Shown: positions 2,626 to 43,504 of the stretch, piece after piece
Position numbering within the stretch: the stretch's first letter is position 1
Layout of the letters: every line of letters starts with the position of its first letter
NCBI GenBank assembly: GCA_013540605.1
Contig: JABVCK010000027.1
Location: 171,976-235,975, forward strand
From: Bacillota bacterium
GTDB taxonomy: Bacteria; Bacillota; Clostridia; Ch29
Length of the DNA stretch: 64,000 nt
Direction: 5' to 3'
Program-made: the position numbers and the translations under genes
Notes under the pieces: model-generated
What the model was told of the DNA's origin: nothing
The model's database searches: none
The model's input: only the letters and a program-made list of their open reading frames with translations

Positions 2626-2636
2626 ACTACATATAC

Positions 2637-2665: not shown

Positions 2666-2678
2666 AACCCTCCTGCTC

Positions 2679-4756: not shown

Positions 4757-5487
4757 TCAGTCAATACTTTTGATAAATTTTCTATAAAATACCCATATAT
4801 ATACAAGGTGGACCGCTGTACCCAGCAATATAAATAACCAGTATGCCCCTTTTCCCAGTACCAGGTTTGTCTATGCCGTAACCGGCCAGAAGAACGGTAT
4901 TACACCCAAAAGGGTTTCCCATCGACACTCGGTAAAATATGCTATTACCGGCGCTATCATAAAAATCCCCAGTCCCTTTGACAGTGCCAGGCCTTCCACC
5001 TTATTGCCGGCAAAGGTTGCCAGAAACAGAGCTGTTATCGGAACCTCCATGGCAGCCACCAAAGCAATGGGGGCTACCAGCCTAAGCGCCACTCCCATGA
5101 AGTTTATCATCGGGAATACTGCTGCGGCATAAATAAGCCCAAGTGCTGCGGTAACAAGCATCCTATACTTTATATACCCTGATCTCCCTATGGGGGTAAC
5201 CGCAACAGTGGTCAATATACGGTCATCCCTTTCGTCCAGCAGGAGAAATCCTGTGACCATGCCAACCATAAGAGAAGGTAGAAGCAGTAGAAAACCTGTA
5301 ATCAACGGATAATATTCCTCAATGTCAATATAACCCTTCAGTTTAAGCGTAAGGAACGGAATTATGAATCTTACTGCTGTAAAAGCGAGGACAGGACCAA
5401 GGGATATACAAGGGATATAATAGCAAGCATGGATTCCCTGGTTATATTTCTAAAATCGTTTTTAGCTAGAAAATAGTACCTTTTCAT
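4757..5487 (-). pseudogene. ABC-2 type export permease (fluoroquinolone-exporter-like), disrupted
   Basis: GFLLLDERDD and FAGNKVEGLA motifs; 11-bp tandem duplication CAAGGGATATA (5398-5419) causes a frameshift; in-frame TAG at 4871 with the frame continuing to TGA at 4757. Confidence 0.75.
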
Positions 5488-5488
5488 T

Positions 5489-6057
5489 TTATCTCTCCCC
5501 CTCCTTTAATACGATAAACCTGTAAAATGCCCTGTAAGCAAAGGGGAAGGCCGCAGCTATACAGATAATCAAATAGCTAATAGAATATAAGATCAGCCAG
5601 GCTGCCGGCAATTCGAAGGCTCCCCGGATAAGAACCAGGGATGCCTGCGTGGGGAGCAGGTAGAAAACCCAGCTGCGGTATAGACCAAAATAATCCAGAA
5701 TAGGGAGACAAAAAACTGAAATATACAATAGTGAGGTCAACATGTATTCATTAACCGTCCTGAACCGTGCAACTGCCATAAACCCTATCAGAATGAACAG
5801 CACCGATGTAAGCGCTATACCGGTTACCAACAGCGGCACATTGAACCCGGATAACGGCGACATGGCACTGATAGCTGTTCCTGTCAACAGCGCTAGGGAA
5901 GTCAGGGTAATTACCTTTGAAATCAGGTACTCTCTTATCCTCAGCGGGGTAATTATTATATAGTCCAGGGTGGATTCTCCCCTTTCCAGCAATACAAGGC
6001 CTCCAATAAAGTAAAATCCTAAAAAGGATGGGTCTGAAAAGACGAGCAGCGGAACCA
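5489..6057 (-). pseudogene. ABC-2 type export permease, 5'-truncated at the intron 3' end
   Basis: FSDPSFLGFYFIGGLVLLER motif begins directly at the intron boundary; no N-terminus or RBS. Confidence 0.75.
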
Positions 6058-7708: not shown

Positions 7709-7710
7709 TG

Positions 7711-7738
7711 AAGGAAAAGCAGGGCAAAAGCCCTGCTT
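7711..7738 (-). terminator. Terminator of the P-type ATPase gene and IIC intron insertion landmark
   Basis: AAGCAGGGC-TTTT-GCCCTGCTT hairpin plus pyrimidine run. Confidence 0.8.
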
Positions 7739-7741
7739 GCT

Positions 7742-10402
7742 CTATACGCTATGCTCTTCGCTTGTGGTATTCAGCTTCAGCAGTTTTACAGTCTCCACAA
7801 CAGCTATAGGAGTCAGCGCCAGCAAACCTACGGCCGTCCACTCGTTGGAGTGCAGTGCAACAAGCTTAAACACCGATGAGAGAAAAGGCACCTCAAGTAC
7901 TATGAATACCAGCAGAGCGGATATTCCCACAGCCCCTAACAGGTATTTGTTTGATGCAAGTCCTACCTTGAACACAGACTGCTTGTTAGAGCGCATATTG
8001 AACGAATGGGTAAGCTGGCTCAGGGCCAATACTGTAAAGGCCATTGTTCTGCCTGCTTCCAGGCTCCTTTGACTCCCTATTATGAAGGCTGCAAGGGTCA
8101 AAACTCCCACCATTATACCCTGATATGCGATTCTCCTTATCATTCCTTTGTCAAAAATATTCTGTTTAGGATCCCTCGGTTTCCTGTCCATTATATTCTT
8201 CTCCGCCGGGTCCACGCCAAGGGCCAGGGCAGGCAGGCTGTCGGTCACAAGGTTAACCCAGAGTATATGAATGGGAAGCAGCGGCTCATCCCAGTTGAGC
8301 ATGGTTGCTATGAAAAGTGTCAGTATCTCTCCCACATTACATGAAAGCAGGAACTGTATTGCTTTGAGTATATTGGCAAAGATTGTCCTGCCCTCCTCAA
8401 CCGCTGCAACTACGGTCGCGAAATTATCATCGGTCAGAACCATATCCGAGGCCTCCTTTGCCACATCGGTACCCACAACACCCATAGCTGCTCCAATATC
8501 GGCAATCTTCAGCGCAGGGGCATCGTTAACCCCATCCCCGGTCATTGCCACTATTTGGCCCTGGGACTGCCAGGCTTTCACTATCCTTACTTTGTGCTCC
8601 GGGGAAACCCTGGCATATACCGAGAATTGCCATACTTTCTGTTCAAGCTCTTCATCGCTCATATCCTCTAACTGTGCCCCGGTTATCGCCTCCTCATCCT
8701 TCTCTAATATACCCAGGTCCCGGGCGATGGCAACAGCTGTAATCCTATGGTCACCGGTTATCATAACCGGTTTAATCCCTGCCCTTTTGCACAGCTTTAC
8801 TGCCTCCCGGGCCTCCGGCCTTGGGGGGTCTATCATCCCCACCATTCCTATAAATATGAGGTCCCCTTCATATACTTCTCCCTTGTTGTACCGGGAAATT
8901 TCATTAATATCTTTATAGGCCATGCCAAGTACCCTCAGGGCATCCGCTGCCATAGCTTCATTTGTTTCCAATATCTTGGCCCTGTGGTGATCATCCAGCT
9001 TTATGGCACGTCCATCCAGCAGAACCCTGCTGGATCTTCTCAATAATTCCTCCACTGCACCCTTTGCATATACACGGTAGCCGTTTTCAGTCCTGTGTAC
9101 GGTGGTCATGAGTTTTCGTTTTGAATCAAAGGGGATCTCATCCACCCTTGGCTCATTTGCATCCAGTACATCCTTGCTTATGTCGGCTTTTATACTCAAA
9201 TCAAGAAGCGCTGTTTCGGTCGGGTCCCCAAAAGTCTTGACCTCTCCATCTGTTAGTCGGAGCTTTGCATCATTACACAATACCCCCGCCATAACAAGTA
9301 ATTCGAATTGTTTGTGATTTTGCACGTCACCAATCCCCTGGTCAACGTCATAAAGCCTGTTCTCGTAAAACACCTTTTCCACTGTCATTCTGTTCTGTGT
9401 CAGGGTTCCGGTCTTGTCAGAACATATGACAGTCGCGCTTCCGAGGGTTTCCACCGAGGGCAGTTTTCTTATAATAGCATTCCGCTTTACCATTCTTTGT
9501 ACCCCTATAGCGAGGACTATGGTGGCAATTGCGGGCAACCCTTCGGGTATGGCAGCCACAGCCAAGCTCACCGCTGTAAGAAACATTTCAAATATCTCTT
9601 TTCCATATAGTATCCCAACAATAAAGATAACCGCACAAATAGCAAGAGCTCCGATACCAAGGGTTTTCCCCAGCGCCTGCAGCCTTCTTTTAAGGGGTGT
9701 CTCCACTTCTTCGGCAGATTGTATCATCTCCGCTATTCTCCCAACCTCCGTATTCATGCCTGTTCCTACTACAATACCTTTACCTCGCCCATAGGTTACT
9801 ATGCTTCCCGAATACCCCATATTCACACGGTCTCCAATGGGAATATTCTTTTTATCAAGTGCCTTGCTGTTCTTTTCCACCGGAACCGACTCTCCGGTCA
9901 GTGCCGCTTCCTGGATTTTGAGATTCGAGGTGTCGAAGAGTCTAAGATCCGCCGGAACTAAATCACCGGTTTCGAGGATTACAATATCCCCTTGCACCAA
10001 CTGCCTTGCGGGTATTACATCATGACTCCCGCCCCTCAGCACCTTTGCGTGCGGCGCTGCCATCTTTTTCAATGCTGATAAAGATTCCTCGGCCTTGCTT
10101 TCCTGTACCACACCCATAACCGCGTTTAATATAACTATCAGCAGTATTACAATAGCGTCCGTCAGCTCTCCCAGCAAGCCTGAGATTATTGCAGCAACTA
10201 TGAGTATTATTATCATAAAATCCTTGAACTGGTCAGCATACATCTGAAGAATTGATTTTCTATCCTTCTGCTGAATTTCGTTGTACCCATATTCCTCCAG
10301 CCTTTTCTCGGCCTCTCTTTCACTTAGTCCCTGAGTCAGTGACGTGGAAAGCTCTTTCGCTACAATCTCTTTTTCAACCGTATACCATTCCAGCTTTGCC
10401 AT
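7742..10402 (-). CDS. P-type IIA cation-transporting ATPase (Ca2+/Mn2+, YoaB-like)
   Basis: TGES, AIPEGL, DKTGTLT, MITGD, GDGVNDAPAL, LWVNLVTDSLPA motifs. Confidence 0.95.
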   Translation of the reverse strand: MAKLEWYTVEKEIVAKELSTSLTQGLSEREAEKRLEEYGYNEIQQKDRKSILQMYADQFKDFMIIILIVAAIISGLLGELTDAIVILLIVILNAVMGVVQESKAEESLSALKKMAAPHAKVLRGGSHDVIPARQLVQGDIVILETGDLVPADLRLFDTSNLKIQEAALTGESVPVEKNSKALDKKNIPIGDRVNMGYSGSIVTYGRGKGIVVGTGMNTEVGRIAEMIQSAEEVETPLKRRLQALGKTLGIGALAICAVIFIVGILYGKEIFEMFLTAVSLAVAAIPEGLPAIATIVLAIGVQRMVKRNAIIRKLPSVETLGSATVICSDKTGTLTQNRMTVEKVFYENRLYDVDQGIGDVQNHKQFELLVMAGVLCNDAKLRLTDGEVKTFGDPTETALLDLSIKADISKDVLDANEPRVDEIPFDSKRKLMTTVHRTENGYRVYAKGAVEELLRRSSRVLLDGRAIKLDDHHRAKILETNEAMAADALRVLGMAYKDINEISRYNKGEVYEGDLIFIGMVGMIDPPRPEAREAVKLCKRAGIKPVMITGDHRITAVAIARDLGILEKDEEAITGAQLEDMSDEELEQKVWQFSVYARVSPEHKVRIVKAWQSQGQIVAMTGDGVNDAPALKIADIGAAMGVVGTDVAKEASDMVLTDDNFATVVAAVEEGRTIFANILKAIQFLLSCNVGEILTLFIATMLNWDEPLLPIHILWVNLVTDSLPALALGVDPAEKNIMDRKPRDPKQNIFDKGMIRRIAYQGIMVGVLTLAAFIIGSQRSLEAGRTMAFTVLALSQLTHSFNMRSNKQSVFKVGLASNKYLLGAVGISALLVFIVLEVPFLSSVFKLVALHSNEWTAVGLLALTPIAVVETVKLLKLNTTSEEHSV

Positions 10403-22274: not shown

Positions 22275-23819
22275 TTAAATGCTCACCGCTATATCCGAGG
22301 GTATCCTCGCTTTAATAATAATCTTGTCCCTGTACACCACAACCTCCCTGACCACCGCCCTGATTATCTCATATTTATCGTCAAAAGTCAGTTCCCCTAT
22401 GGTTTTCTTCAACCTTCCCGAAATCTCCTCAAGGACCTCCCTGTCGTTCTCGGCAAGCCTGCTTTTGCCTATTTCAGTCTCCAGCGCAGCCATTTTGTCC
22501 TCCAGAATTCTCGACCGGGTTACGATATCCCTCATCCTCTTCTCCATCTCGTCCTCCGTAATAAACTCCTTCTGGAACATGGTTGCTACCCTGTCCTTCT
22601 CGGCAGCCAGCCTTCCGATATCCGCCCTGATTTCTTCGAGTTCCCTTTCCCTGGCCTTTATATCCTCCGGCCTGCTGTTCTCAAGCTCCTTCTGAAGCTC
22701 TTCCGGATTGTTTATCCACCTTAGTATATGATCCCACACCGCATCCTCTATCTCATCCGCTCTTATAAAGCCTAGTTCGCACTTCTCCCTTCCCGTTATC
22801 CCTGGTGAGCGGGCCGTACATACGTAGTACCTGTACTTCCTTCCGCCTTGCTGCGTAATCAGGTTTCCGTGAATGGTGCTCCCGCACAGGCCGCACGTAA
22901 TCATGGCGCTCAACAAATAGCAGGCCTTGCCGTAACTCCTCCACTTACGCCGCGCCTGCTTCATTATCTCCTGAACCTCATTCCATGTTTCCTCATCGAT
23001 GATGGCAGGCACTTCTATCGGCACCCACTCCTCCCTGGGCCTTTCAACTCTCTTGACCTTCTCTTCAGGGTCCTTATACTTGTTAAATTTCGTCTCTCTC
23101 GTATCATACCTCCTAATATACAGAACACCCTTATAAGCAGTATTAACCAGAATACGCTTTACAGTGTTCTTGTACCACATCTTGCTCCGGGGAGCCGGTA
23201 TACCCTTATCATTCAATCTTCTGGCTATGGAATGGGGACCCATATCCTCATCCAGGAGCATTCTGTACATCATCCGTACAATCTCTGCTTCCTTCTCATT
23301 TATACTCAGAATGTCCGTCTCCTTGTCAAAATCATACCCGTACAGCCCAGGGCTGTGCGTCAGCTTGCCCTGCGCCGCCTTGGCCCTCTTCCCCAGTTCG
23401 CTCCTCAGCTGCATCCTGGCCCTCTCGTACTCATCCACCGCCGCCATTATCGTTATCTGAAACCTTCCCTCGGGACTGTCCTCGTATGTATTTTTAACAA
23501 ATACCAGATGGACATTCGCTTTTTTTATTTCATCTATAATTATGAGCTGGTGCGCTGTATTTCTTGAAAGCCTGCTGGAATCCAGGCTTATAAAATAGTC
23601 AATATCCCCCTTGCCGATCCTGTCCAAGGCCTCCATCAGTTCCGGCCTTTCGAGTATGGAGCCGGAAACCCCCTCCTCGCAAAACTCCAGAACATCGTCC
23701 CTGCTGCACCCCAGTTCCAGCGCCTTCCTGTAACACTCATCTCTCTGTGCCTGTATGGAGAACCCTTTCTCGGCCTGTTCTTCCGTCGACACCCTTATGT
23801 ATATTACCGCCTTTTTCAT
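22275..23819 (-). CDS. Large serine recombinase (SpoIVCA/CisA-like)
   Basis: YIRVSTEEQ, G.SG...ERP, SRLSR, recombinase domain, C..CG...Y.C Zn ribbon, coiled coil. Confidence 0.95.
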   Translation of the reverse strand: MKKAVIYIRVSTEEQAEKGFSIQAQRDECYRKALELGCSRDDVLEFCEEGVSGSILERPELMEALDRIGKGDIDYFISLDSSRLSRNTAHQLIIIDEIKKANVHLVFVKNTYEDSPEGRFQITIMAAVDEYERARMQLRSELGKRAKAAQGKLTHSPGLYGYDFDKETDILSINEKEAEIVRMMYRMLLDEDMGPHSIARRLNDKGIPAPRSKMWYKNTVKRILVNTAYKGVLYIRRYDTRETKFNKYKDPEEKVKRVERPREEWVPIEVPAIIDEETWNEVQEIMKQARRKWRSYGKACYLLSAMITCGLCGSTIHGNLITQQGGRKYRYYVCTARSPGITGREKCELGFIRADEIEDAVWDHILRWINNPEELQKELENSRPEDIKARERELEEIRADIGRLAAEKDRVATMFQKEFITEDEMEKRMRDIVTRSRILEDKMAALETEIGKSRLAENDREVLEEISGRLKKTIGELTFDDKYEIIRAVVREVVVYRDKIIIKARIPSDIAVSI

Positions 23820-23943
23820 TGTGCACGACCTCGCCATAGCATTTTCTTATAATATAACGCAGAGCCTTTCTGTATGCATCCATTCTTTCCCGTTCGTTTC
23901 CCACTCTTTCCACCGATACAGTATATCTTCCCGGCTCTTTCAA
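23737..23943 (-). CDS. Small basic protein overlapping the recombinase start; candidate recombination directionality factor
   Basis: TTG start with strong RBS (GGAGGGGGAG); RDF role inferred from position only. Confidence 0.45.
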   Translation of the reverse strand: MKEPGRYTVSVERVGNERERMDAYRKALRYIIRKCYGEVVHNEKGGNIHKGVDGRTGRERVLHTGTER

Positions 23944-25573: not shown

Positions 25574-25969
25574 ATGAATTTAGGTTATAGAATTAGACAG
25601 TTAAGAAAAGAAAATAATTTGACTCAAGAAAAATTCGGCAAACTATTTAATATTGCCAAAAATACTGTTTCTCAATATGAAAACGGTATTAGCACTCCTG
25701 ATATTCAAACTCAAAAAAAAATTTGCGAATACTTCAATATTTCCTTGGATTGGCTGCATGGCAGAACCAACATCCGTAACGAAGAAACCGTTCAAAACAT
25801 AAAAAACGCAATAGATGACAACCCTGAACTCCTGGAACTCTGGAACCGCCTTGTACAGCGGGAAGACCTGCAGTACATGTTCGAGCAGACAAAACGCCTT
25901 ACCCCTGAAAGCATCAGAAAAATTATCGAAGTAATAAAGCTTATAGAAGACGAGGAAAGCCAGGAATAG
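25574..25969 (+). CDS. ImmR/CI-like XRE repressor
   Basis: RIRQLRKE..LTQ..FG......TVSQYENG...PD, F.ISLDWL.GRT. Confidence 0.9.
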   Translation: MNLGYRIRQLRKENNLTQEKFGKLFNIAKNTVSQYENGISTPDIQTQKKICEYFNISLDWLHGRTNIRNEETVQNIKNAIDDNPELLELWNRLVQREDLQYMFEQTKRLTPESIRKIIEVIKLIEDEESQE

Positions 25970-26070
25970 CACAATACTTTAGGGGTAAACGAAGGCAAAT
26001 GTGTGTTCTGTGAGGAGGGAGTAAAATAATTACTGGCAATGCGGAGCTATACAAGCTCCTGGAACACATA

Positions 26071-26298
26071 ATGAGCAAGGAATCCAGTTTAAAGAAAGAT
26101 CTAACCAAATACGATATCAATATCTTATTTGAAGACTTGAGATCGCAAGTAAGGGCTATGGTGTACACATCATCCTGGGGAAAACGTTACATTATAATAA
26201 ATTCCGCAATAACATACGATCGATTGCAGCATCTATTTTTACACGAACTAACACATATCCTGAACGATTTCCCAAAACACGGACATATAATATTTTAA
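26071..26298 (+). CDS. ImmA/IrrE-like metallopeptidase (short, possibly truncated)
   Basis: YIIINS...FLHELTHI (HExxH) directly after the repressor. Confidence 0.6.
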   Translation: MSKESSLKKDLTKYDINILFEDLRSQVRAMVYTSSWGKRYIIINSAITYDRLQHLFLHELTHILNDFPKHGHIIF

Positions 26299-26838
26299 TA
26301 TAAAGTACAGGCACAAAAAATAAGCGTACACATTTGCCGGAAAACTGACAGCAGTCTATGGGAAATGAGATAGACAAGCTGTTCCGGATTATAAAGGGGT
26401 ATCTTTTTATAATAGAACTCCTAAAATTTTAAGCCTATTGCAGTAATATTTCCCATAACTAGCATATCACGGCTTATCTAATATGTATTGTCAATAATGC
26501 GAAGAGACAAAGCTACAATAGATAACAAAAAATCAATAATTTGTCTATGCTAGCAATACTCTTTAAGCACTACTCTCTTTACACTAGTAAAAGTATATTC
26601 CAGACTACTTTCTAAGCATATATATTTAGAGAATTTTAACGGCCCATAAGAACAAAGCGAATGTATTTACAGTTATGAAAAGCTTCATCTATAGACCGGT
26701 ATTCCCGAACAATAGATTCGCAAACACCGGAACATTTCCGGTATTCCCGAACTACTTACTTCGGGGTTATAGAAGTTATCTGAAAGCTACCCAAAACCCT
26801 ATAAAAACTTTGTGAAAGATATTTTAGGAGAAACTTAT

Positions 26839-27660
26839 ATGAGTTATTATGGGTGGACAGGCTGTCCTATAATTGTCAAAACACAAATACAACGTTTCCT
26901 AAGTATTGCTCAGAGTGCATTATCCGATAATCTAGTAGGTGTTTACCTGCATGGTTCTCTAGCTATGGGGTGCTTTAACCCAGAGCTAAGTGATATTGAT
27001 ATTCTGGTTGCAATGCGAGAGAGTATATCTGTTGAAACAAAACGTAATATTATTCAAGAGTTGTTATATCTGTCTCGCGTTCCTAACCCTATTGAAGTAA
27101 GTTTTTTAAGCAGAGATAATCTTAAACTATGGAGGTATCCAACGCCATATGATTTGCATTACAGTGAATTGTGGCGAGAAAAGTACAACAGTCAACTGTT
27201 AAATGATGAATGGAAAGATTGGAACAAAAGAACAAATAAAGATCCAGATTTAGCAGCTCATATTACTATTGTATTACATAGAGGAATTTGCCTTTATGGT
27301 AGTCCAGTAGAAACAGTTTTTCCAAATGTTCCGAGTGAACATTATCAGGCATCTATATTACTCGACTATGAAGATGCTCGCAAAAGAATTATTGAGAATC
27401 CTATATATGGTGTTTTAAATCTCTGTCGTGTGTACTGGTACCTTCTTGAAAACTGTATCTGCTCAAAAGAAGAAGCAGGAGTATGGGCAGTCAATTTTCT
27501 ACCTGAAGAATTCAGAGTACTCGTTACACAGATATTGGAGGTTTATCAAGGGAGTAATAAACAGGAACAGTTTAGTAATATGATATTGAAGAGATTTGCA
27601 AGTTATATAGATAGAGAGATTAGAAGATTAATCAATAAAGAGGGGGCAGCCATCAGATAA
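26839..27660 (+). CDS. Aminoglycoside nucleotidyltransferase-like protein (AadA/ANT(9)-like, DUF4111 C-terminus)
   Basis: GVYLHGSLAMG.F....SDIDI, DPDLAAH, YGVLNLCR, SKEEAG.W; substrate not determinable from sequence. Confidence 0.85.
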   Translation: MSYYGWTGCPIIVKTQIQRFLSIAQSALSDNLVGVYLHGSLAMGCFNPELSDIDILVAMRESISVETKRNIIQELLYLSRVPNPIEVSFLSRDNLKLWRYPTPYDLHYSELWREKYNSQLLNDEWKDWNKRTNKDPDLAAHITIVLHRGICLYGSPVETVFPNVPSEHYQASILLDYEDARKRIIENPIYGVLNLCRVYWYLLENCICSKEEAGVWAVNFLPEEFRVLVTQILEVYQGSNKQEQFSNMILKRFASYIDREIRRLINKEGAAIR

Positions 27661-27781
27661 CACATTAGAGATTTATGATGTTGGCAGGATATAAAACAAA
27701 AATGACCCTGCTGAGTATATATCAGCAAGGCCATCTAAATTTCACAAGATTATCTCAAACATCATGAATCTCCTGTTGTAC
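27648..27781 (+). other. attC-like recombination site
   Basis: Inverse core AGCCATCAGATAAC, 14/15 inverted repeat (27668-27682 / 27758-27772), inner hairpin, core GTTGTAC. Confidence 0.55.
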
Positions 27782-27913
27782 TGAACCGTCTGCCACACAG
27801 GGTTAGCTATGGGGGATCAATTTTCACCATAACCACAGAAACTGCCAAATGACAGTATACAGAATAGCCGACATGCCTAATATAAGGCTGATAACACAGC
27901 AAAAAGTGCAAAA

Positions 27914-29080
27914 TTAAGCATAGTTCCCCCCTCCCCCAATATCAAAACTGTAATTTCTGCCCAAACGGACATAATCTTTGGTTACTCTATTCATGCTCTC
28001 TGTGAAACTGTTTGTAAGGTTTTCATCAGGAAATTTGAAGTAGTTAATTACTTCTTGTTTGCATCGGTTCAGAGCGTTTTTGATTTTTACAAAGTGTTTC
28101 ATTGACTTTGGAACGTTTTCTTCCCACAAGTAGAACAGTTCAAATGCTTCTTTTGAATCTGCTGCAAGGTACACATCTCTCAAGTCTTCCTTTAGCCAGT
28201 ATGCAATCTTCAATTCATCATACTTTTTGAATATTGCATCCCTTTTGGCTACTTTGTCAGGTGTAAGTTTTTCTTTGCCAGTGAGAAGTATTTTTCTTAC
28301 GCCCCATAACTCCTGTGTCTCCGCTGTATTCGCCTTGTTTTTTATAGCATTGAAATATTTTAACAATGCTTTATTGGCAAAAGCGATAACGTGGAACTTG
28401 TCAATAATAACCTTTGCATTTGGAATCAATTCCTTACATACATACTTGTACGCTGGACACATATCCATCGTAACGGCTTCAATATTCTCATAGCCCTCCA
28501 TACTGCTGATAAATGCCTTTAAAGCCGCTTTTGTGTTGCTCTCCAGCATCTCAATCATTATGCCTTTTTCAATGTCCATAAGAACCGCTCTGGCTCGTTT
28601 ACAGATATACACTTCATCAATTCCTAATACCCTTGGAGCCTTTATTTTAGTGTTGTTGCGGATTTCCATTACAACCTCATCAAAGTACCGTTTAACTGTC
28701 TGGCTTGATAATCCAACTTCATCACCAATATCTTCATAACTCCTTTTAACTGCCTGTTCCATGATGTATTCTTTAAGCCTTTTAGTTACCTTTGCAAATG
28801 TGTCAATACCGTTTAATGGCTCATAGAATGTCTCACCACACGCTGAACACTTGTATCTACGATGCTTTATTCTAAGTAATACTCTCTTGCCTTGCGAAGG
28901 TATATCTACAACATCTCTATATCTAACCGAATGTTTTGTAAACTTTACGTCAATGCTTCCACAGTGAATACATACATAAGGCGGTTCTTCGGGTTCAATC
29001 ACATAGAGGTAATCGTATTTGTTTTGTTTGAAATCCAGAATCCTGTATCCTGGCAAATGCAATGCGTTCACCCAAATCAC
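27914..29080 (-). CDS. ISL3-family transposase, probably C-terminally truncated
   Basis: C..CG zinc finger, LGIDE, VTMDM, IDKFHV, TNSFTESMN. Confidence 0.88.
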   Translation of the reverse strand: MIWVNALHLPGYRILDFKQNKYDYLYVIEPEEPPYVCIHCGSIDVKFTKHSVRYRDVVDIPSQGKRVLLRIKHRRYKCSACGETFYEPLNGIDTFAKVTKRLKEYIMEQAVKRSYEDIGDEVGLSSQTVKRYFDEVVMEIRNNTKIKAPRVLGIDEVYICKRARAVLMDIEKGIMIEMLESNTKAALKAFISSMEGYENIEAVTMDMCPAYKYVCKELIPNAKVIIDKFHVIAFANKALLKYFNAIKNKANTAETQELWGVRKILLTGKEKLTPDKVAKRDAIFKKYDELKIAYWLKEDLRDVYLAADSKEAFELFYLWEENVPKSMKHFVKIKNALNRCKQEVINYFKFPDENLTNSFTESMNRVTKDYVRLGRNYSFDIGGGGNYA

Positions 29081-31588: not shown

Positions 31589-33337
31589 CTACCATTCACC
31601 TATCCTATTCGCTTTGAATAACTCCTCCGGCGTATTAAAAGCTGTAAAAAACAACGGAGACCCAGCAAAGGACAATGGTGAAACTGGTCCTACACTCATA
31701 AATGAATACTGTCTGGATGCTATATCAAAAGAGCTATGAGGATCACGAAAAGTCTGATATAGTTTAAGAGCATTAGGATCTCCTCCAATAATTTCTCTTA
31801 AAGATATAAATTCTGTCCCTAAAGCCAATCCAAATCCAAAAAATAAGATCCTAAGCTGATTTATAATCTCCCTATGCAAACTGGAAAGTGTCTGACTAAT
31901 GAACATCCATCCAAGTCCATACTTCCTAGTAGTTCTTACTGCATCAATTAAAGAGAGCCTCACTCTTTCCTGTCTTTCATCTTCCCTCTTTTCCCTTGAA
32001 GCTAGTCTATGGGCCTCATCTAAGACAACTAACGTATTCAGAAACCTGCTTTCTTGATATGCCGTTTCTGCTAAATAACCGATTGCATCTAGTAGCCTTT
32101 TTATAACCAATGCTTGGATTGTGTCGTTCCAGAAAAGCCCAGTAGCCGTTTCTTTCGATAAATCAATGATAACCACTGGGCGGTTGTCTCCATCAAGGTT
32201 GAACACCTGATTAATTAAGGCATCAACACTTATTGCGCCATCTCGTTCCTTTCTAAACAACTCGGTTATGGGTGCCCAATAGCTATTGAAAAAATCATCT
32301 TTATCTGCTTCTTCATATGCAGCTATAAATCTATTACGTGATGTATCACTTTTATATATTTGGCATTGTATATTTTTATCACCAAGTATCTTCCATGCAC
32401 GTTCAAAAGCCTCACGACTATATAAATCCTTTAACTTCACCTTACTTTTGTCTAACTTCTCAGCCAATAATTCGCAAGCAGTATTTCTATTTTCACCTTT
32501 CCGTATTGTAAGACGATCAAAAAAGGGAGACTCATATAGAATCTCACTAAAAAGATCCCATCTATCCAATACTAAATCTTTAATGCTCTTAACTATTACT
32601 TTTTTACTCATTCTCTTAAATATATCTGCCAAATTCAAAGGAAATCCTTCAGTTCTAATTTGCCCCCTCACATCTTTTGAAAATTCTCCTTGAGGATCAA
32701 TAACAAAAATAGCCATTTCAGAGTACCTAGCATATGCAAGAAGAATCATTTTGGCAAGAACTGATTTCCCTGAACCGGTCTTTCCAAATATCCCTAGATG
32801 ATAAGCTTCTCCTGCTCCATGTGGTCCTCTACCGAAATGTTTAAACCATAGTGGTAATTTAGGTTTTGATCCATATACATGTCCTAAATAAAAAATCTCA
32901 TCTTTATATCTTTCCAATAATTTGTCCAGCATAGCCTCAGTTGCTAAATTAATAAACGTGCCGGTAGCCGGAACTGTTCCCAAAATACTTGGTTCATACC
33001 GGTTACCCTCGTCGCTAAAAACAGCGCTGACCGCCATCTGCCCAAGATGTGTATCCTGCTGTCCGCTTACGGGGTTAACTTGTCCTCTTTGTCTAGCAAG
33101 TGATCTCATAGTCGGATCTTCAAGCCAAATATTTCTCAATTGTACTTCTGTTATCTGACCTAATGCATAATGTGCTTTTCCTTCCTGAGAAAAACTGAAA
33201 AACGCCAATTCTCCAACTAGCTTCTTATTAACAGCAGTTCCCAAAATGTCCAAGGACAGTTCACTTGTTGAAGAAGGTGAACCTATTGTACCGATACGTT
33301 CAGAAATACTTAATAGATTTTGAATACTGCTACTCAT
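31589..33337 (-). CDS. herA: HerA-like ATPase/helicase (HAS barrel plus DUF87)
   Basis: HLGIFGKTGSGKS, VIDPQGEF, VVLDEAH, RKYGLG...SQ; adjacent to nurA. Confidence 0.85.
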   Translation of the reverse strand: MSSSIQNLLSISERIGTIGSPSSTSELSLDILGTAVNKKLVGELAFFSFSQEGKAHYALGQITEVQLRNIWLEDPTMRSLARQRGQVNPVSGQQDTHLGQMAVSAVFSDEGNRYEPSILGTVPATGTFINLATEAMLDKLLERYKDEIFYLGHVYGSKPKLPLWFKHFGRGPHGAGEAYHLGIFGKTGSGKSVLAKMILLAYARYSEMAIFVIDPQGEFSKDVRGQIRTEGFPLNLADIFKRMSKKVIVKSIKDLVLDRWDLFSEILYESPFFDRLTIRKGENRNTACELLAEKLDKSKVKLKDLYSREAFERAWKILGDKNIQCQIYKSDTSRNRFIAAYEEADKDDFFNSYWAPITELFRKERDGAISVDALINQVFNLDGDNRPVVIIDLSKETATGLFWNDTIQALVIKRLLDAIGYLAETAYQESRFLNTLVVLDEAHRLASREKREDERQERVRLSLIDAVRTTRKYGLGWMFISQTLSSLHREIINQLRILFFGFGLALGTEFISLREIIGGDPNALKLYQTFRDPHSSFDIASRQYSFMSVGPVSPLSFAGSPLFFTAFNTPEELFKANRIGEW

Positions 33338-33339
33338 TT

Positions 33340-34473
33340 CTATTTCCCCCTTTCTGTCCTATATCCATGCATATTAAAGAATATTTCAGATATATCTCCG
33401 CTATATAATTCAGTCATCCTACGAGTAGCGGTCTGCCTAAAAGCTGGGATAGCACTACCTAGATGCTTTACCATTCTATCGGCCAAATAAAGAGGATAAG
33501 GTTCCATGATGCCAGCAGTGCTACTCTGATATTTAAGCCCTTGAAACAGAATAGCTAATCGGGAACGGTTAGTTGCAATGGAATAAGCCATTTCTATCCT
33601 TAAAGCCGGTGTCCATCTATGTGGTCTATAATAAACTACACAAAGTCTATTAATGCCTGTTAGAACTTCGTCTCTTAATTTAGTAAGCTCATTATCTTTT
33701 AAAGGTACCTTTAAATGCCATGGTTGTTCAGGTTTCTCCAAACGTATTGGCACAGTAAACTCTCCTGGTAATAGAAGGGAGGTTAAAATTGCTCTATCAT
33801 CGTAATATGAAGGCCAACCGAATTTTTCGCCTAATTCCCTTCGTGTAGTATATTTAGGTAAACCGACCCACAATTTATCCGTCCTTGGAGCTTCAATTAT
33901 AGTTTTATATGAGATCAAAAACTCTTTGAACTCATTCGTTAATTTTTCACTAAGGTGTCCGTTCCCATAATCTGGCAAGCTATTTAAAGCCTGATTCATA
34001 TATATCAAAGGTGTTGTAAGAGAACCGTCTAACATCACTACATCATGAGGAGCTTTAACAGCTAGATTAAATTCCATTCCCATCATAATACCTCTAATAA
34101 CTGTTCCACTGCTAGGATTATGCCTTTCAGGAGAAATGAATACGAGATGGTTCGGTTTTTGCCAATATCTTGTTTCTGATGGAGGTGCCAATCCTTCAAT
34201 AGCGACTGCTGCACATGCTATGAGATCAGTAGAAAGTAACCTTTCAACAACATATGAACCGTCCACTCCACAAGTTGTTGGAATCCCAGGATACCCAAAA
34301 TCACTATCATTTTTTAAGATTCCTTTGTCCTTCAGTTGCTTTCTAATTTCTTCTTTATTCTTTTGTAATTTCATGAAAGAATTAAACAACTCTTCTCCAA
34401 TTTTTTCGCTCTTCAATAACATCTCATCCACTAAAGCTTCCGGTAACTGTGAAAATACGGTTTGATTTTCCAT
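33340..34473 (-). CDS. nurA: NurA-family nuclease
   Basis: CGVDGS, VMLDGSL, G.PK, EPYPLYLAD..VK motifs. Confidence 0.85.
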   Translation of the reverse strand: MENQTVFSQLPEALVDEMLLKSEKIGEELFNSFMKLQKNKEEIRKQLKDKGILKNDSDFGYPGIPTTCGVDGSYVVERLLSTDLIACAAVAIEGLAPPSETRYWQKPNHLVFISPERHNPSSGTVIRGIMMGMEFNLAVKAPHDVVMLDGSLTTPLIYMNQALNSLPDYGNGHLSEKLTNEFKEFLISYKTIIEAPRTDKLWVGLPKYTTRRELGEKFGWPSYYDDRAILTSLLLPGEFTVPIRLEKPEQPWHLKVPLKDNELTKLRDEVLTGINRLCVVYYRPHRWTPALRIEMAYSIATNRSRLAILFQGLKYQSSTAGIMEPYPLYLADRMVKHLGSAIPAFRQTATRRMTELYSGDISEIFFNMHGYRTERGK

Positions 34474-34700: not shown

Positions 34701-35918
34701 TTATATATCCTTAATTAGTAAGCTTCTTTTTATTTCACCTTTATCCCATTTCTTCCATAACGTATTGCTTTCTGCCCTATTCTTCATATATCTTTCTTTC
34801 CAGTAATCAGCCAATTCTTTAAACTTATAATCATGAAATTTTATTTCGTTGTCCAATCCACTGACATATTCCTTTACATTAGCCGCTAAAGGAAATAAAA
34901 ATACTTCCCGTTGGACATCATGCTGGACTAGCTCATTAATACTCTTTACTTTCAAACGTTTCTTTATATCTATTTCTTCATTAATCTTTCTCAGGGTTGT
35001 GTTAATTAGTCTAAATTTATAATTAGGTCCGTTACCATAACCGCCTTCCACTTTTATCCCATCCATTAACAAATATTCTTTCATTAAGTTGCATATCTCA
35101 TCGGTATACTTAAATGTTCCAATACCTTTTGTATAACCTAAAGAAAAACATAACAGCTCATTTTTATACTTAACTCTATTATAAAGTGAGCTCCTTCCAT
35201 ATGCTGAAGTCGTAGTCAACAAAATTAAATTAGGCGATACTGGATTATCCTCCATTTCGGTTCTTCTATTACCGTATTTCTCTTTATAGAAATTCCTAAC
35301 CTCATTTGATACCGAGCACATCGCAACCAATTTCCCTCCTAAAAGCATATTATATGGGGGTACGGCTCCCAGTGTAAATATGTCCATAGTCTCATTCAAC
35401 TTATAGACCTTTTCTCTGCCTTTAAGACCTAGCCATTGATTTCTTAGTGACAAACCTAGAGTAGGAGATTGACATCCAAGAATTCCTATTAATTTACCAT
35501 TACTTCTATCCATTATTAAAAAACATAGTCTTCTTCCATATCCAAATGTGTATGGCAAACTCCAAGTAAACCTGGCCGTTTTAAAAATGTCCCATTGTAG
35601 CTTATCACGAACGGGAACTAACTGAGGCTCAATATTTTCAGGGATTATATCGGTACCATTAGCGAAATACTTGTCAATAATCATGTTCCCCCTAGTGGTA
35701 AGAAACTTCCTATGTTTTATCAATAATTCTACACGAGCTTTTTCATGTATTTTCTTTAAGACATCTTTATCATCACCATTATTTCTATGTAAAGGATACT
35801 CTTCGATTTTTCTAATAATTTTATTTAAAAGCATCTTCTTTTTTCTTTCAAATTTCTTTACCTGTTCAATTGACTTGTTTGAAATATCAGCTTTTTCTTC
35901 TGACTTCATAATATACAC
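34701..35918 (-). CDS. DruA-like (DUF4338) protein
   Basis: WSLPY..GYGRR, GKLIGI, LGAVPPYN.LLGGKL, TTTSAYGRSSLYNR, GYTKG.G. Confidence 0.8.
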   Translation of the reverse strand: MYIMKSEEKADISNKSIEQVKKFERKKKMLLNKIIRKIEEYPLHRNNGDDKDVLKKIHEKARVELLIKHRKFLTTRGNMIIDKYFANGTDIIPENIEPQLVPVRDKLQWDIFKTARFTWSLPYTFGYGRRLCFLIMDRSNGKLIGILGCQSPTLGLSLRNQWLGLKGREKVYKLNETMDIFTLGAVPPYNMLLGGKLVAMCSVSNEVRNFYKEKYGNRRTEMEDNPVSPNLILLTTTSAYGRSSLYNRVKYKNELLCFSLGYTKGIGTFKYTDEICNLMKEYLLMDGIKVEGGYGNGPNYKFRLINTTLRKINEEIDIKKRLKVKSINELVQHDVQREVFLFPLAANVKEYVSGLDNEIKFHDYKFKELADYWKERYMKNRAESNTLWKKWDKGEIKRSLLIKDI

Positions 35919-36008: not shown

Positions 36009-37685
36009 CTATACTCTTCTAACTATTACCTTCCTTATCTCAAATTCCGGAAACTTTTTCAGCATGAAAACCTCTCCAACGCCCAGCCTCTTTATCTCAT
36101 CCGGATGCACGATAAAACTCCTTTGCTCGCTGACGGTACCCATACCGGTCATTCCCGCTTGGTCAATCTGTCTGGTAATTGACATATCCTCCCTGGTACC
36201 TATCAACGACGACAGCAGTTCGGCCGATGCCGGCACGTCCTGCCGATGAATTATCTTGATGTTGGTATTCCCCAGCACCTGCTCCATCAGCTCTTCTTCT
36301 CCGCCCGTTCTCAGATCAGCAAGCTCCTGAGTGCTTAAGATAACGTGAAATCCCGCGCCCCTCGACTTGTTAATATAATCGGTCACCTGGGACCCGGCAA
36401 ATACCCCAAACTCATCGAAGATACTGAATACCTTCTTTCCCCTCCCGAACATCCTTGCCGCCGTCGTCTTCAGATCTATCACAATAAGCCTACCCAGCAG
36501 CCGCGAATACTCCGGAAACCTGAGACTGTCTAAACTAAAAAATACAACTCCATCGCTGTCTATGGCGGATACCAGGTCAATGGTTGTATCTTCATCCTCA
36601 TCCGTATCCTTTAGAAGATGCCCTATCTCGCTCTCCGCAAAAACCGCAAGTCTGTTCACCAGCCCCCCGATATCCCTCTTCGACTCTTCCACCATCCCCG
36701 CAAACCGCTTAAGCTCGTACTCGTCAATCATCCCCTCCCTGGCCAGCTTCCTGGCGGCAAGGACGATGTCCCCCGGATCCAGCAAATCCGCAATATTGCT
36801 CAGATCAATCTTCACTCCCAGCATCTGGAGCACCCTTATTGACGACTGCAGATACCTCTCCGCCATCAGCTTATAATGCGGCTCGGTCCACTCGGTTATG
36901 GAAATCAGCTTGTCCTTCAACTCCGAGTAGTTCCCCCTCCTCAGCGGATTGTAATGCAGAGAGCCGCTATCGGCGGCCATGGAGAACCCGAAAAACCTCC
37001 TGCCGCACCTCTTCGCAATATTCCTTACCCGCTCCATAAACTCAATCTCTCCCTTACCGTCCACTACAATAAGGGGTATGCCCCTGAGCGCCGCACTCTC
37101 CACAAAATTCATGAGCGTAGTGGTTTTACCGGCTCCGGTGGCCCCCAGGACAAGACAGTGGCCATTAAGCTCCGCGTCCGTAACATGTACCGGCTTCCCG
37201 TCCATGCTTATCCCCAGCGCCGTACCCTCCGGGGGATGAACCAGCCTCTCCATCATCTCCGCGGCCTTTTTCCCGGAGATTGTTTTTCCCGGTTTATCGT
37301 GCCTATCTTTCATCCATTCCGGCCGGGATGCCTTTATCATTTCAATTATTAGGCCCATTACAACCCCTATGGGTACCCCTGCCTTAACGAACACAGCCCA
37401 GTTTATAGTCCCGCCGCTCCGATGCCCTGCCAGGCGTTTAAAAAGCATTACCTGCTGATGGCAATACTCAAATACAAATTCCTTGAATCCAAAGGCCAGA
37501 AATACCGCAAAGGCCATTCCTATGACGGCACCTGTACCATACACCATTAGCTTTTTATCCTTAAAGCCTTCCGCAAGCGCATACATAAGCGCCGCAACCG
37601 GCAGCGCCGGCCAAAAAAACAAAAAAACCCCTATTCCAAGGGCAGCAATCATAATCCTGTCGGTATCACACAATCGGTTATGCAT
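36009..37685 (-). CDS. Type IV coupling protein (TraD/TrwB/VirD4-like)
   Basis: N-terminal TM helices, H.LVLGATGAGKT, VDGKG, IFDEF, RGAG..V..STQ. Confidence 0.88.
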   Translation of the reverse strand: MHNRLCDTDRIMIAALGIGVFLFFWPALPVAALMYALAEGFKDKKLMVYGTGAVIGMAFAVFLAFGFKEFVFEYCHQQVMLFKRLAGHRSGGTINWAVFVKAGVPIGVVMGLIIEMIKASRPEWMKDRHDKPGKTISGKKAAEMMERLVHPPEGTALGISMDGKPVHVTDAELNGHCLVLGATGAGKTTTLMNFVESAALRGIPLIVVDGKGEIEFMERVRNIAKRCGRRFFGFSMAADSGSLHYNPLRRGNYSELKDKLISITEWTEPHYKLMAERYLQSSIRVLQMLGVKIDLSNIADLLDPGDIVLAARKLAREGMIDEYELKRFAGMVEESKRDIGGLVNRLAVFAESEIGHLLKDTDEDEDTTIDLVSAIDSDGVVFFSLDSLRFPEYSRLLGRLIVIDLKTTAARMFGRGKKVFSIFDEFGVFAGSQVTDYINKSRGAGFHVILSTQELADLRTGGEEELMEQVLGNTNIKIIHRQDVPASAELLSSLIGTREDMSITRQIDQAGMTGMGTVSEQRSFIVHPDEIKRLGVGEVFMLKKFPEFEIRKVIVRRV

Positions 37686-42478: not shown

Positions 42479-43504
42479 TTATCTTCCTTCTTCCAGTTCC
42501 GCGACCTTTAGAAATCCCAGGGCATTGGCCATCTGGGCGTTTTTCACCGTCACAACGTTGCTATACAGGTCGTTCATATGCCCCTTCAGCTGTTTTGCTC
42601 CTCCGCCGGCCAGGAATACGGTATGGAAAAAGTCCAGCTTATTGCCCCATACCACCTTCACCCTGTCCTTGAGCACCCTTGCCACCTCGCTCCTTACCGC
42701 ATCTACCTCCCTGCCGAACTCGATCTTCTCGCCCCGATAGTAAATACTCCCGCTCTCGACCAGGTGCATGAGCTCTGCTATGTCCAGCCTTGTTCCCGTC
42801 CTCTGAGTGAACAGCTTGTCTACCGCATTGTTCAGCGCCGACATCCCCATATCCAGGGTCCCGGACAGGTCCTCCCGCAGCACCAGTTTCCCCTTGTTAA
42901 CCACGAACACGATATAGTCGGTCGTCCTGAACCCGATGTCCACAAGCCCTATATACGCACCTTCCACAAGGTACCTGTCCAGCTCGTCCATTATTGCGTA
43001 ATACACGGCACCGGCAGCCTGCATAAAGGGCGTAGCCCTCTGGAATTTCACAACCCTGGTCCTGTCGCTCCCTTTTATCCCTACAACCGCCTTGAACCCC
43101 TCCAGCATTCGTCTGAACTCGTTCTTCTGATGCACATACTGCTCCAGGGGAAGCCCGGAAACTATGTGGACCGGCACCTCCTCCTCAGGGAACAGCAAAA
43201 ACGACGCGGCCGCCAGCAAGGCCCTTGTGTTGGGATGGTTTATCTTGTCCTCGTCAAACGCGTATGAAGTGTTCTTACCTTCCCTCCTGGCAAGCTCTCC
43301 TACAAAATACTCCTGGCCGTTACGCCCATCGCTTATCACCACGTGCATATTTTCAATAATATCCTCATGCGCTTTTCCGGCAAAAATGCTCCCCAGTTTC
43401 CTGTCGTACGCAGCACCTACCAGTGACGGGAAAGCCACCTTCCTCCCCGCCTCGTTAACTCCCTTCGTATACCCGTAACCCAGGTCCAAACCTATCTTGA
43501 ACAT
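42479..43504 (-). CDS. parM: ParM/StbA actin-like ATPase
   Basis: GLDLGYGYTK, SGLPL, VDIGFRTTD, LAGGGA, ANALGF. Confidence 0.9.
   Translation of the reverse strand: MFKIGLDLGYGYTKGVNEAGRKVAFPSLVGAAYDRKLGSIFAGKAHEDIIENMHVVISDGRNGQEYFVGELARREGKNTSYAFDEDKINHPNTRALLAAASFLLFPEEEVPVHIVSGLPLEQYVHQKNEFRRMLEGFKAVVGIKGSDRTRVVKFQRATPFMQAAGAVYYAIMDELDRYLVEGAYIGLVDIGFRTTDYIVFVVNKGKLVLREDLSGTLDMGMSALNNAVDKLFTQRTGTRLDIAELMHLVESGSIYYRGEKIEFGREVDAVRSEVARVLKDRVKVVWGNKLDFFHTVFLAGGGAKQLKGHMNDLYSNVVTVKNAQMANALGFLKVAELEEGR

Follow-up and report, generated by a model that had tools for sequence, protein, structure and literature searches.

Surveys, in the excerpts drawn on here, describe the Firmicutes as essentially without integrons for reasons called unclear, and report no more from the phylum than a single complete integron and a few CALINs (PMC4889954, PMC9024848). 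Insertions of the IS91 family lie beside a 5'-GTTC/CTTG tetranucleotide and do not duplicate the target, and its members are able to mobilise the DNA next to them, according to the portions considered of PMC13181058 and, for ISCR, PMC8876359; an IS91 subgroup with a tyrosine recombinase gene upstream is described in the part of 10.1101/542381 used here. We analysed a stretch of 64,000 nucleotides from a bacterium of the same phylum (hereafter the window), in which a nucleotidyltransferase gene is situated between an attI-like site and the remains of an IS91-type element (Table 1). This gene is probably the cargo of a mobile cassette in an integron-like system of anaerobic Firmicutes.

Table 1. 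Features at the putative cassette locus, in window coordinates
Feature	Position	Strand	Basis and remarks
attI-like element U	26678..26777	+	15-nt direct repeats at 26696-26710 and 26738-26752; ends in ..GAAGTT
Putative cassette 5' terminus	26775..26792	+	GTT, 4-nt variable box, GAAAG..; 15/18 against the reverse complement of 27644-27661; homology to the X2 contig starts at 26770; joint in the X1 minor contig at 26779
Cargo gene, 273-aa ANT(3'')/ANT(9)-like nucleotidyltransferase	26839..27660	+	AGGAG ribosome-binding site at 26826-30; stop TAA at 27658-60
Putative cassette 3' terminus	27644..27661	+	inverse-core-like box ending ..CAGATAAC; also the IS91-type insertion point; X2 homology stops at 27664; X1 joint at 27657
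IS91-family stump (ori-side end)	27662..27941	-	transposase and recombinase genes missing
Outer 14/15 palindrome of the IS end	27668..27772	.	arms 27668-82 and 27758-72; loop varies among IS subfamilies
Inner hairpin, then T-run on the minus strand	27700..27736	-	terminator-like site of the transposase operon, now lost
Inner inverted repeat of the IS	27775..27788	+	partner is the element's far end ..CGGTTTAGTGCAAC; earlier read as a new GTT core
ISL3-family transposase gene	27914..29080	-	NF033550, 241 bits against a cut-off of 180, residues 27-377 of 388

The cargo gene and its paired ends

The cargo protein shares its two-domain layout, a nucleotidyltransferase domain plus AadA_C, with AadA/ANT(3'') and ANT(9). 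Both domains score above their Pfam gathering thresholds (AadA_C PF13427, 77 bits against 22.2; among the NTP_transf_2 and Polbeta nucleotidyltransferase domains, PF18765 with 32.3 against 26.9 and PF01909 with 27.3 against 21), placing the protein among the AadA_C-domain nucleotidyltransferases (PF13427). It differs from the named enzymes in falling under all curated cut-offs: the 12 NCBIfam families matched gave 49-106 bits where 193-595 are required (best match NF010309, 106 bits against 193), so that by these cut-offs it is not counted among the ANT(3'')/ANT(9) resistance enzymes, and its nearest homologues, mostly unnamed environmental proteins, are at most 58% identical. The label "resistance-type" in the original prediction thus fits at the level of domains and goes too far at the level of curated families. 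A megablast search with 26300-27900 returned no match among plasmids and phages, and a search for loci of protein relatives confirmed none of its pattern stretches (68 in genome contigs, 86 in metagenome contigs and 1 in viral contigs). By eye only, the last 60 nt of the gene resemble the 3' repeat of relatives, and BLAST at E 1e-3 found no match.

As had been described from the sequence, a GTT-led 14-mer at 26775-26788 and an AAC-ended 14-mer at 27648-27661 agree as reverse complements at 12 of 14 positions, and the second box contains the stop codon of the cargo gene. A repeat search extended the pair to 18 nt (83% complementary). On its own, the 12/14 pair is only mildly unusual: 14 of 500 shuffles produced an equal or better match, as did 4 of the 294 segment pairs taken from the window at the same spacing, and 1.65 kb of sequence yielded 72 inverted pairs, this one included. 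Its significance comes from the comparison with other loci and from a whole-genome scan, not from the single-locus match.

Among independent Firmicute loci, 12 of 22 carry 18 nt ending in AAC together with a GTT-led inverted partner, located 379-1758 nt upstream and complementary at 14-17 of the 18 positions. In a control with 200 shuffles per locus, the observed score was never reached in ten of these loci, and once and seven times in the other two. Positions 4-7 of the end box pair perfectly in all 12 loci despite nine different sequences, and at position 11 an A always stands opposite a C (12/12), a fixed A·C mismatch. The inverted repeats are longer, about 60-90 nt, in three genomes (G010, G005 and G002). 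No good partner was found in the remaining ten loci, one of which has only 191 nt of upstream sequence and several at most 1.5 kb. A scan of the whole genome for paired ends gave eight matches (six pairs), against none in the reversed genome.

Two contigs bear on the boundaries directly. In an unrelated metagenome, contig X2 carries a copy of the cassette whose match, at about 96% identity with 32 differences, is confined to 26770-27664; its neighbours are different, the switch falling at 26770-77 and 27661-64. An attC-like right arm precedes this copy; after it follows AAC-ACA-GTGTTCCCAC.., which resembles the sites in the G401 genome and in the C35 array described below, as an uninterrupted palindrome with the IS absent. 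Conversely, X1 record 4, a minor contig (depth 27.8 against about 193) from what is probably the source sample, has 680 other letters between 26779 and 27657. Neither a recombination product nor a circle was seen in the runs, which consist of contigs only, where rare forms are invisible; X3 and X4 cover short parts of the stretch, and 27703-28100 is covered by X1 alone. At a resolution of about ±5 nt, units are thus swapped at the GTT box, which is what the original prediction had proposed to look for. In four genomes, moreover, different cassettes come after the upstream site U. These comparisons support the delimitation of the cassette from GTT 26775 to AAC 27661 as a discrete unit with complementary GTT.. 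and ..AAC boxes, and suggest that such units are exchanged by recombination at these sites. The window holds a single cassette and no array, with one attI-like site and one split site only.

IS91-family sequence downstream of the cassette

The 14/15 inverted repeat, the inner hairpin and the GTT at 27775 are all present as first reported; their reading as the attC of the cassette had to be given up, as they belong to an IS91-plus-recombinase element for which 22 insertion sites were found. The segment 27658-27941 is 80% identical to G010:C89, where the C-terminus of an IS91 transposase follows. X1 contigs break at 27942, and ISL3 sequence begins at about the same position, so that the last nine codons of the ISL3-family transposase ORF are read from the IS91 stump. 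Sequence comparison identifies 27662-27941, with the GTT at 27775, as one end of an IS91-family element and not as the cassette's own attC. With tblastn, neither a Y2 HUH transposase gene nor any remnant of a transposase or recombinase was found beside the gene in the window, so that the window copy is a stump. Read by eye on the opposite strand, loops of other subfamilies also resemble G+C-rich hairpins with T-runs after them.

Complete relatives of the stump have genes for a recombinase and for an IS91 transposase that reaches 432.5 bits, the cut-off being 125. IS91 members carrying such a recombinase are listed in ISfinder. In keeping with the family, the element has a tetranucleotide target and subterminal palindromes and makes no target duplication, none being present at four G401 copies; the tetranucleotide by the ori-side end is GTTA in 20 of the 22 sites and GTTC in two. 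All 22 flanks end in ..C-R-N-N-(T/G) and then AAC, i.e. in a cassette-type terminus, and a transposase is encoded in the downstream DNA of nine of these loci. The complete element itself follows the plan of a cassette and comprises a GTT-led box, genes, an AAC-ended box and a hairpin body.

Several other assignments of this region were tried and rejected. The end from 27776 onwards does not belong to the neighbouring IS3, as no matching repeat is present at the far end of that element, and no ISL3 terminal repeats were found around the hairpin. An IS91 copy on contig C23 of the same genome is of a different type (about 24% identical, no like ends). A 171-nt element beside the G401 IS copies does not form an array of its own, with only five full copies, four of them IS-linked, and one 30-nt fragment; it may be borne by the IS or be a favoured target of it. 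The hairpin motif gave no matches in viral contigs.

Given this setting, the gene might be ordinary cargo trapped amid IS debris, its 5' box a by-product of one-ended transposition by a rolling-circle IS91 element that picks a GTTA or GTTC target with an extended sequence preference. The excerpted accounts of the family's target and of its ability to mobilise adjacent DNA (PMC13181058, PMC8876359) would fit, and each of the 22 flanks, ending in (T/G)AAC, reads GTTA or GTTC on the other strand. We nevertheless regard this as unlikely, since the array on contig C35 has five clean junctions and is without IS91 sequence, and the X2 copy keeps the same boundaries, its palindrome being uninterrupted and free of an IS. 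The 5' GTT boxes, furthermore, adjoin attC-like arms or attI-like sites and not IS ends, and rolling-circle read-through does not predict 4-nt boxes that co-vary at both ends.

Arrays, attI-like sites and recombinases

Other such sites and arrays, the existence of which the original prediction had left to be checked, are present both in this genome and in relatives. On another contig of the same genome (G000:C35:386250-393260), a co-oriented gene array contains five clean AAC..GTT palindromic junctions and one degenerate junction. The order within a junction is AAC, short spacer, L'' .. L', spacer and GTT, and with 146-173 nt the sites are longer than the 57-141 nt of attC sites, which are imperfect palindromes made up of R''..AAC and GTT..R' boxes, inner L boxes and unpaired bases. 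The boxes, the inner stems and spacers of unequal length are seen in all five. Four of the five fold with z-scores of -3.0 to -7.3, the fifth with z about 0. The cargo genes are unrelated (HNH, DUF6431, SDR, hydrolase, GNAT, M50), and the units at 386300, 387961 and 391537 have ends that are not well matched. Judged by structure, the array would fit a CALIN (two attC sites or more and, within a few kb, no integrase). A central palindrome is common to several site bodies from three genomes.

Upstream of the cassette, one of the two degenerate sites originally proposed (26685-26780) coincides with the conserved element U; the other (26450-26685) found no support: its pair amounts, by eye, to a 7-nt match, and the motif turns up about 1.4 times in each kb of the window. 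Element U is 75-90% identical to copies at G010:C33, G010:C49 and G002:C6, each followed by a different cassette, and it folds with z-scores of -3.2 to -4.5. It was found in 4 of 399 genomes at class level and in one metagenome stretch with the same sequence as the G002 copy; Rfam gave no matches over 25900-28100 at E up to 1. Similarity to the relatives fades over about 20 nt beyond the GTT without a sharp stop, this stretch being a semi-conserved cassette terminus. The idea that U is the far end of the IS91 element was rejected, as nhmmer finds U in none of the IS loci, and is also disfavoured by the presence of U in intergenic regions of core genes.

At G010:C33 the U copy begins 6 nt past the stop of a gene for a 368-aa tyrosine recombinase. 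More generally, arrays of the relatives start after Xer/IntI-like recombinases of 354-368 aa (NF040815, 226.9 and 236.5 bits, cut-off 220). Among 11 loci with full-length homologues of these recombinases, seven have direct repeats with a GTT-led box after them, no more than about 210 nt from the stop; three are cut by contig ends and one is unclear. An attI-like site beside a recombinase gene is seen at G010:C33, in G401 and in 7 of the 11 homologue loci, and in the window the attI-like element stands without a recombinase gene. No array-type recombinase was detected in the window by tblastn, in agreement with the earlier statement that it holds no IntI, nor was there a match reaching E 1e-40 in the whole genome. 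None of the 17 matches to the IntI model TIGR02249 in this genome exceeds the cut-off (best 83.8 bits against 265), and the recombinases heading the relatives' arrays also stay below the IntI models (207.9 and 219.6 against 265, and 133.9 and 136.2 against 435, in two stretches each). An IntI with the additional segment was accordingly found neither in this genome nor among the recombinases of the relatives. Since no close copy is present in the window or the genome, any recombinase would have to act in trans; the original suggestion of a tyrosine recombinase acting in this way gains from the Xer/IntI-like genes that head the relatives' arrays.

These arrays also speak to a second alternative, that of small non-autonomous transposons: the units would end in terminal inverted repeats of 18 bp, carry passenger genes and be moved by some transposase, tending to land in palindromic intergenic repeats. 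Single genes bracketed by inverted repeats, with the repeats reaching 60-90 nt in three genomes, are what would be expected, but we think this quite improbable. The 4-nt box is of nine types in 12 units and yet complementary, which the site of a sequence-specific transposase would not tolerate, and no target duplications were seen. The units are in addition tandem and co-oriented, parted by one AAC..GTT palindrome each, and a tyrosine recombinase with a direct-repeat site stands at the head of arrays. That the 12/14 match is due to chance, the gene being a normal chromosomal or island gene with an IS beside it, is very improbable indeed: the shuffles, the segment pairs and the many inverted pairs of the region speak for it, and against it stand the recurrence with co-variation, the genome scan with its empty reversed control, and the X2 and X1 contigs, two independent contigs that break homology within 5 nt of both boxes.

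Under the preferred reading, that of a mobile cassette in an integron-like system, a tyrosine recombinase would exchange cassettes at AAC..GTT sites that presumably fold as single-stranded DNA, and the nucleotidyltransferase cassette is the first one after the attI-like site. An IS91-family element, equipped with an IntI-like recombinase of its own and with a hairpin end like that of a cassette, would then have inserted exactly after the AAC, parting the cassette from its own attC-like palindrome, and an ISL3 element would afterwards have removed most of the IS91-type element. The window copy is probably stranded now, because the genome has no cognate recombinase gene.

Implications and comparison with known systems

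A broader reading, to which we give roughly even chances, is that anaerobic Firmicutes carry their own widespread integron-like gene-capture platform, and that an IS91-plus-recombinase family mimics its cassettes and homes to the AAC box. Such a platform may comprise an Xer-like recombinase without the signature segment of IntI, its gene co-oriented with the cassettes, direct-repeat attI-like sites, and long attC-like palindromes, several with a common central palindrome; its cassette ends may pair over at least 18 nt, apart from one fixed A·C mismatch. In that case the way in which integrons are defined and looked for would account in part for their reported near-absence from the phylum. The recombinase heading the relatives' arrays would not count under integron search rules. 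This locus, the C35 array and the related loci display cassette arrays and mobile cassettes in Clostridia-type genomes, and illustrate how an aminoglycoside-nucleotidyltransferase-like gene can travel as a cassette in Gram-positive anaerobes. As a recombinase, an attI-like site and a cassette site, one of each, can now be named, the integron question becomes testable, and an insertion sequence that disrupts such sites specifically is identified.

Compared with integrons and CALINs as characterised in the survey excerpts (PMC4889954, PMC9024848), the units described here are likewise co-oriented and single-gene. The sites are imperfect AAC..GTT palindromes with inner L''/L' stems and unequal spacers, the cassette ends are mutually complementary as R'/R'' boxes are, and the same cassette occurs in different contexts. 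In the relatives, a recombinase gene is followed by a direct-repeat site and a GTT box, and the recombinase clade is IntI-related according to the part of 10.1101/542381 considered. Unlike in integrons, however, the relatives' recombinase is without the IntI-specific segment, carries about 90 additional aa at its N-terminal end and lies in the same orientation as the cassettes, and the complementarity of the ends extends over 18 nt (60-90 nt in some relatives) with the fixed A·C mismatch.

The IS element resembles IS91 in its transposase, in the subterminal palindromes, in the GTTN at the ori-side end and in making no target duplication, as judged from complete relatives. It differs in a target that goes beyond 4 nt and always lies after the AAC of a cassette-type terminus (22/22), and in being cassette-like itself; the window copy is only a 280-nt stump. 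IS1111-attC elements are mobile elements that target attC. Group IIC-attC introns, in the account excerpted from PMC8876359, are another such case. What these have in common with the locus here is that cassette and attC are parted by a mobile element, and at a fixed position. In contrast to both, the enzymes here would be an HUH transposase together with a tyrosine recombinase; the point of insertion, right behind the first box's AAC, and the range of hosts differ as well.

A probable nucleotidyltransferase cassette in an integrated element

The ANT(3'')/ANT(9)-like nucleotidyltransferase gene (ANT gene) is best read as a cassette that occupies an orphan attI-like site, within an integrated mobile element (window positions 22275-48810) that also encodes cI-like and sigma-like regulators. 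The product comprises 273 aa with AadA_C and nucleotidyltransferase domains, and translation likely starts at ATG 26839, judging from an AGGAG at 26826-30 ahead of it. The motifs on which the original prediction of an integron-like cassette was built are present: the GTT-led and AAC-ended 14-mers are reverse complements at 12/14 positions, the latter contains the stop codon, and an inverted pair follows (27668-82 / 27758-72, 14/15 matching in a repeat search). The 12/14 pair is by itself unremarkable, being reached by 14/500 shuffles and by 4/294 equally spaced segment pairs of the window. In the repeat search the paired ends lengthen to 18 nt with 83% matching (26775-92 / 27644-61); scored as 15/18, this pair was reached by 0/200 shuffles.

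The gene had also been described as resistance-type, which holds as a statement on fold and family only, because the scores lie far under the ANT cut-offs (best 106 bits vs 193, no curated ANT family cut-off being reached) and the relatives are distant and mostly unnamed. Besides an identical sequence, the nearest homologues are at most 58% identical (1481 proteins at E ≤0.001, from 1924 candidates), and most are unnamed or annotated as 'DUF4111 / predicted nucleotidyltransferase'. The locus is present once in its own genome (G000). The ANT gene was not found in the 11 genomes of its family (which is also its order), in which two flanking pieces recur, 26678-26785 and 27645/59-27868.

Features of the window and of related loci (bare coordinates are window positions; G, genome; C, contig; L, extracted locus)
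Feature	Location	Role or content	Basis or remark
GTT-led 14-mer	26775-26788	5' end of unit	sequence reading
AAC-ended 14-mer	27648-27661	3' end of unit	contains TAA stop 27658-60
ORF	26812-27660	ANT gene	
Large serine recombinase	22275-23837		
ImmA-like gene fragment	26071-26298	HExxH motif in translation	adjoins the 26300-26680 ORF-free stretch
HerA/DUF87 + NurA pair	31589-34473		
DruA	34701-35918		
TraG/T4CP-like ATPase	36009-37685	coupling-protein gene	
Actin-like partition gene	42479-43504		
Cassette array	G000:C35:386250-393260 (L059, about 850-7860)	co-oriented genes	end complementarity, junction sites
Shared central palindrome	G000:C35 389560-389590, 391490-391515, 393160-393180; L044 (G010:C33); G401 loci L021-L026		
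Remnant region at end of C35	G000:C35:409030-410295 (L048, L060)		

Contigs of four public sequencing runs were compared with 26300-28100. A 2091-nt contig from a different study (run X2) matches 26770-27664 only, with 32 differences. An attC-like right arm lies ahead of the matching stretch and AAC-ACA-GTGTTCCCAC.. follows, like the starts of site bodies in C35, G401 and L027, the view of the cassette's own palindrome being limited to the 30 nt between the AAC and the contig end. In run X1, which is probably the source sample and as such not independent, a minor contig (depth 27.8 vs about 193) joins 26724-26779 to 680 other letters and then to a diverged IS end from 27657. Both breaks therefore lie no more than 5 nt from the GTT or AAC box, bearing out the expectation that neighbours change at the cassette boundaries.

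The IS91-type element and its insertion sites

The hairpin downstream of the gene, which had been taken together with a 'GTT core' at 27775 for the attC of the ANT cassette, was found to belong to the end of an IS91-type element. A 24-nt motif from the left arm of the hairpin was recovered from named Firmicute contigs, in 23 stretches that often lie at a contig end, and these together with the family loci provided 22 distinct left flanks. Four copies in the related genome G401 delimit a repeated unit of 2535 bp, which encodes an IS91-family transposase (NF033538, 432.5 bits vs 125) and a 279-aa Xer/IntI-like tyrosine recombinase; the DNA downstream of the 22 loci encodes the transposase in 9 and the recombinase in 7, the remainder being cut by contig ends or solo ends. 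The far end of the element, ..CGGTTTAGTGCAAC, is the inverted partner of GTTGTACTGAACCG, which holds GTT 27775, and on the minus strand, the strand of the transposase, the window's inner hairpin has the form of a terminator. The supposed single attC is a composite of the AAC box of the cassette, the IS hairpin and the inner GTT box of the IS.

The element with its recombinase sits after AAC at 22/22 distinct sites (loci L019-L041 and L002-L011), each left flank terminating in (T/G)AAC immediately ahead of a conserved A(A/C)ATTAGAG. Its own layout is that of a cassette, in which a GTT-led box, two opposite-strand genes and an AAC-ended box are completed by a hairpin body. IS subfamilies differ in the loop enclosed by the conserved arms, and copies L007 and L011 are without the roughly 100-nt hairpin. 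The remnant in the window is limited to 27662-27941, where similarity to G010:C89 ends; X1 contigs break at 27942, and no transposase or recombinase remnant was found beside the ANT gene in the window. Beyond the stump lie an ISL3 element and then an IS3 element. The last 9 codons of the ISL3 transposase ORF (27914-29080) are supplied by the IS91 stump (junction 27941/27942), and the ISL3 copy looks truncated there because its profile match stops at residue 377/388 (profile position 357/370) and ISL3 terminal repeats were not found.

The flanks of the IS91-type insertions are non-random: counting back from AAC, position -5 is C and position -4 a purine in all 22, and most have A-C at -9/-8. 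In a search upstream of each flank for an inverted, GTT-led partner to its last 18 nt, 12 loci had one, 379-1758 nt away and matching at 14-17 of 18 positions; the observed score was reached by 0/200 shuffles in 10 of these, and by 1/200 and 7/200 in the other two. No good partner was found in 10/22 loci, one of which had just 191 nt upstream. Across the 12 loci, complementarity at positions 4-7 is perfect despite nine different sequences, and position 11 always pairs A (5' end) opposite C (3' end). The 45 nt ahead of GTT end in ..AC in 10/12, and several loci have a common ..GGCTCAGG..CGTCGGGAA.. arm there. In three contigs of relatives (G010:C33, G005:C7 and G002:C6), cargo genes lie between long inverted repeats, with GTT at the start and AAC at the end, and are spaced by palindromes running AAC to GTT. 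The IS of G005:C7 lies precisely at such a boundary, with AAC on one side and the beginning of a palindrome of this kind on the other. Some cassettes of relatives have far longer complementary ends of about 60-90 nt (L044, G010:C33 reverse strand about 3500-5490; L029, 3140-4330; L045, 4000-4710), including a common leader of about 95 nt after GTT, ahead of three different genes, which may act as a promoter or form part of the site.

Recombinases, attI-like sites and arrays

On G010:C33, cassettes lie behind a homologue of the window's upstream element (26678-26777), which itself starts 6 nt after a gene for a 368-aa recombinase. This enzyme scores 236.5 bits with NF040815 (cut-off 220) and matches IntI models under cut-off in two stretches. 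A 354-aa homologue in G401 precedes a short site ending in ..AAACGTT, after which the first cassette has ends matching at 16/18. Homologues occur in 24/401 class genomes (E 1e-40 or better); G000 has none at this threshold and no IntI-model hit over cut-off. In 7/11 full-length homologue loci, the first 210 nt or so past the stop contain two or three direct repeats with a GTT-led box behind them; of the others, three end at a contig edge about 125 nt past the stop and one is ambiguous. The window's upstream element has two 15-nt direct repeats. In the place that the recombinase gene takes in relatives, it is preceded by an A+T-rich, ORF-free stretch of about 380 nt.

Many full-length homologues lie 120-800 nt from a contig end with the 3' end facing the edge (L062, L063, L067, L068, L071). 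Such placement would be expected if repeated downstream sites break short-read assemblies, in which case these arrays may be under-assembled in MAGs.

A scan of G000 for GTT-N4-GA(A/T)A with an inverted partner (at least 15/18) within 150-3000 nt gave 8 hits (6 pairs) vs 0 in the reversed genome, including the ANT unit and two units on C35. The cargo of the C35 array comprises HNH, an 81-aa unknown, DUF6431, SDR, a 222-aa unknown, α/β-hydrolase, GNAT and M50 peptidase. Its five clean AAC..GTT palindromic junctions (146-173 nt) contain inner L''/L' stems and on folding gave z of -3.0 to -7.3 in four and about 0 in one; one further junction is degenerate. The array opens with a site similar to the 3' half of the upstream element in the window. 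Three of its units are without well-matched ends, and it terminates at an IS4-like transposase; no recombinase gene adjoins it. Several site bodies of three genomes contain the same central palindrome, some 21 nt long (..CTAAGATAAGAGCTATCTAAG..), suggesting a putative conserved apical binding site, which classical attC sites are not known to have.

At the end of C35, a roughly 100-nt stump of the IS91-type far end lies directly after glyQS, followed by an RHH-PIN toxin-antitoxin unit and an attC-like site and then by a truncated ANT paralogue (53% identity over 47 aa). The GTT-led start of this paralogue resembles that in the window, and another IS end, at the edge of the contig, truncates the gene after ..TTTTAAC.

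Comparison with known integrons and IS91 elements

From the architecture and the IntI kinship of the recombinases we infer that a tyrosine recombinase carries out the exchange at folded sites; the attC-like body of the ANT cassette was probably separated off by the IS91-type insertion. On integrons in this phylum, a 2016 study reports no complete integrons in Firmicutes and notes CALINs (PMC4889954), a 2022 study one complete Firmicute integron (Limnochorda pilosa) and 'a few CALIN' (PMC9024848), and a review counts Firmicutes among the integron-bearing phyla (PMC8618304). Neither this Firmicute platform nor homing of IS91-type elements to attC boxes was found described in open-access text; some of the loci may be listed as CALINs in supplementary tables, for instance of the IntegronFinder papers. 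A preprint assigns the recombinases of such elements to an 'integron-like' subgroup without the IntI insertion (10.1101/542381). The traits of the element itself fit published IS91 biology, in which a tetranucleotide of the GTTC/CTTG type adjoins oriIS, palindromes lie subterminally and insertion causes no duplication (PMC13181058).
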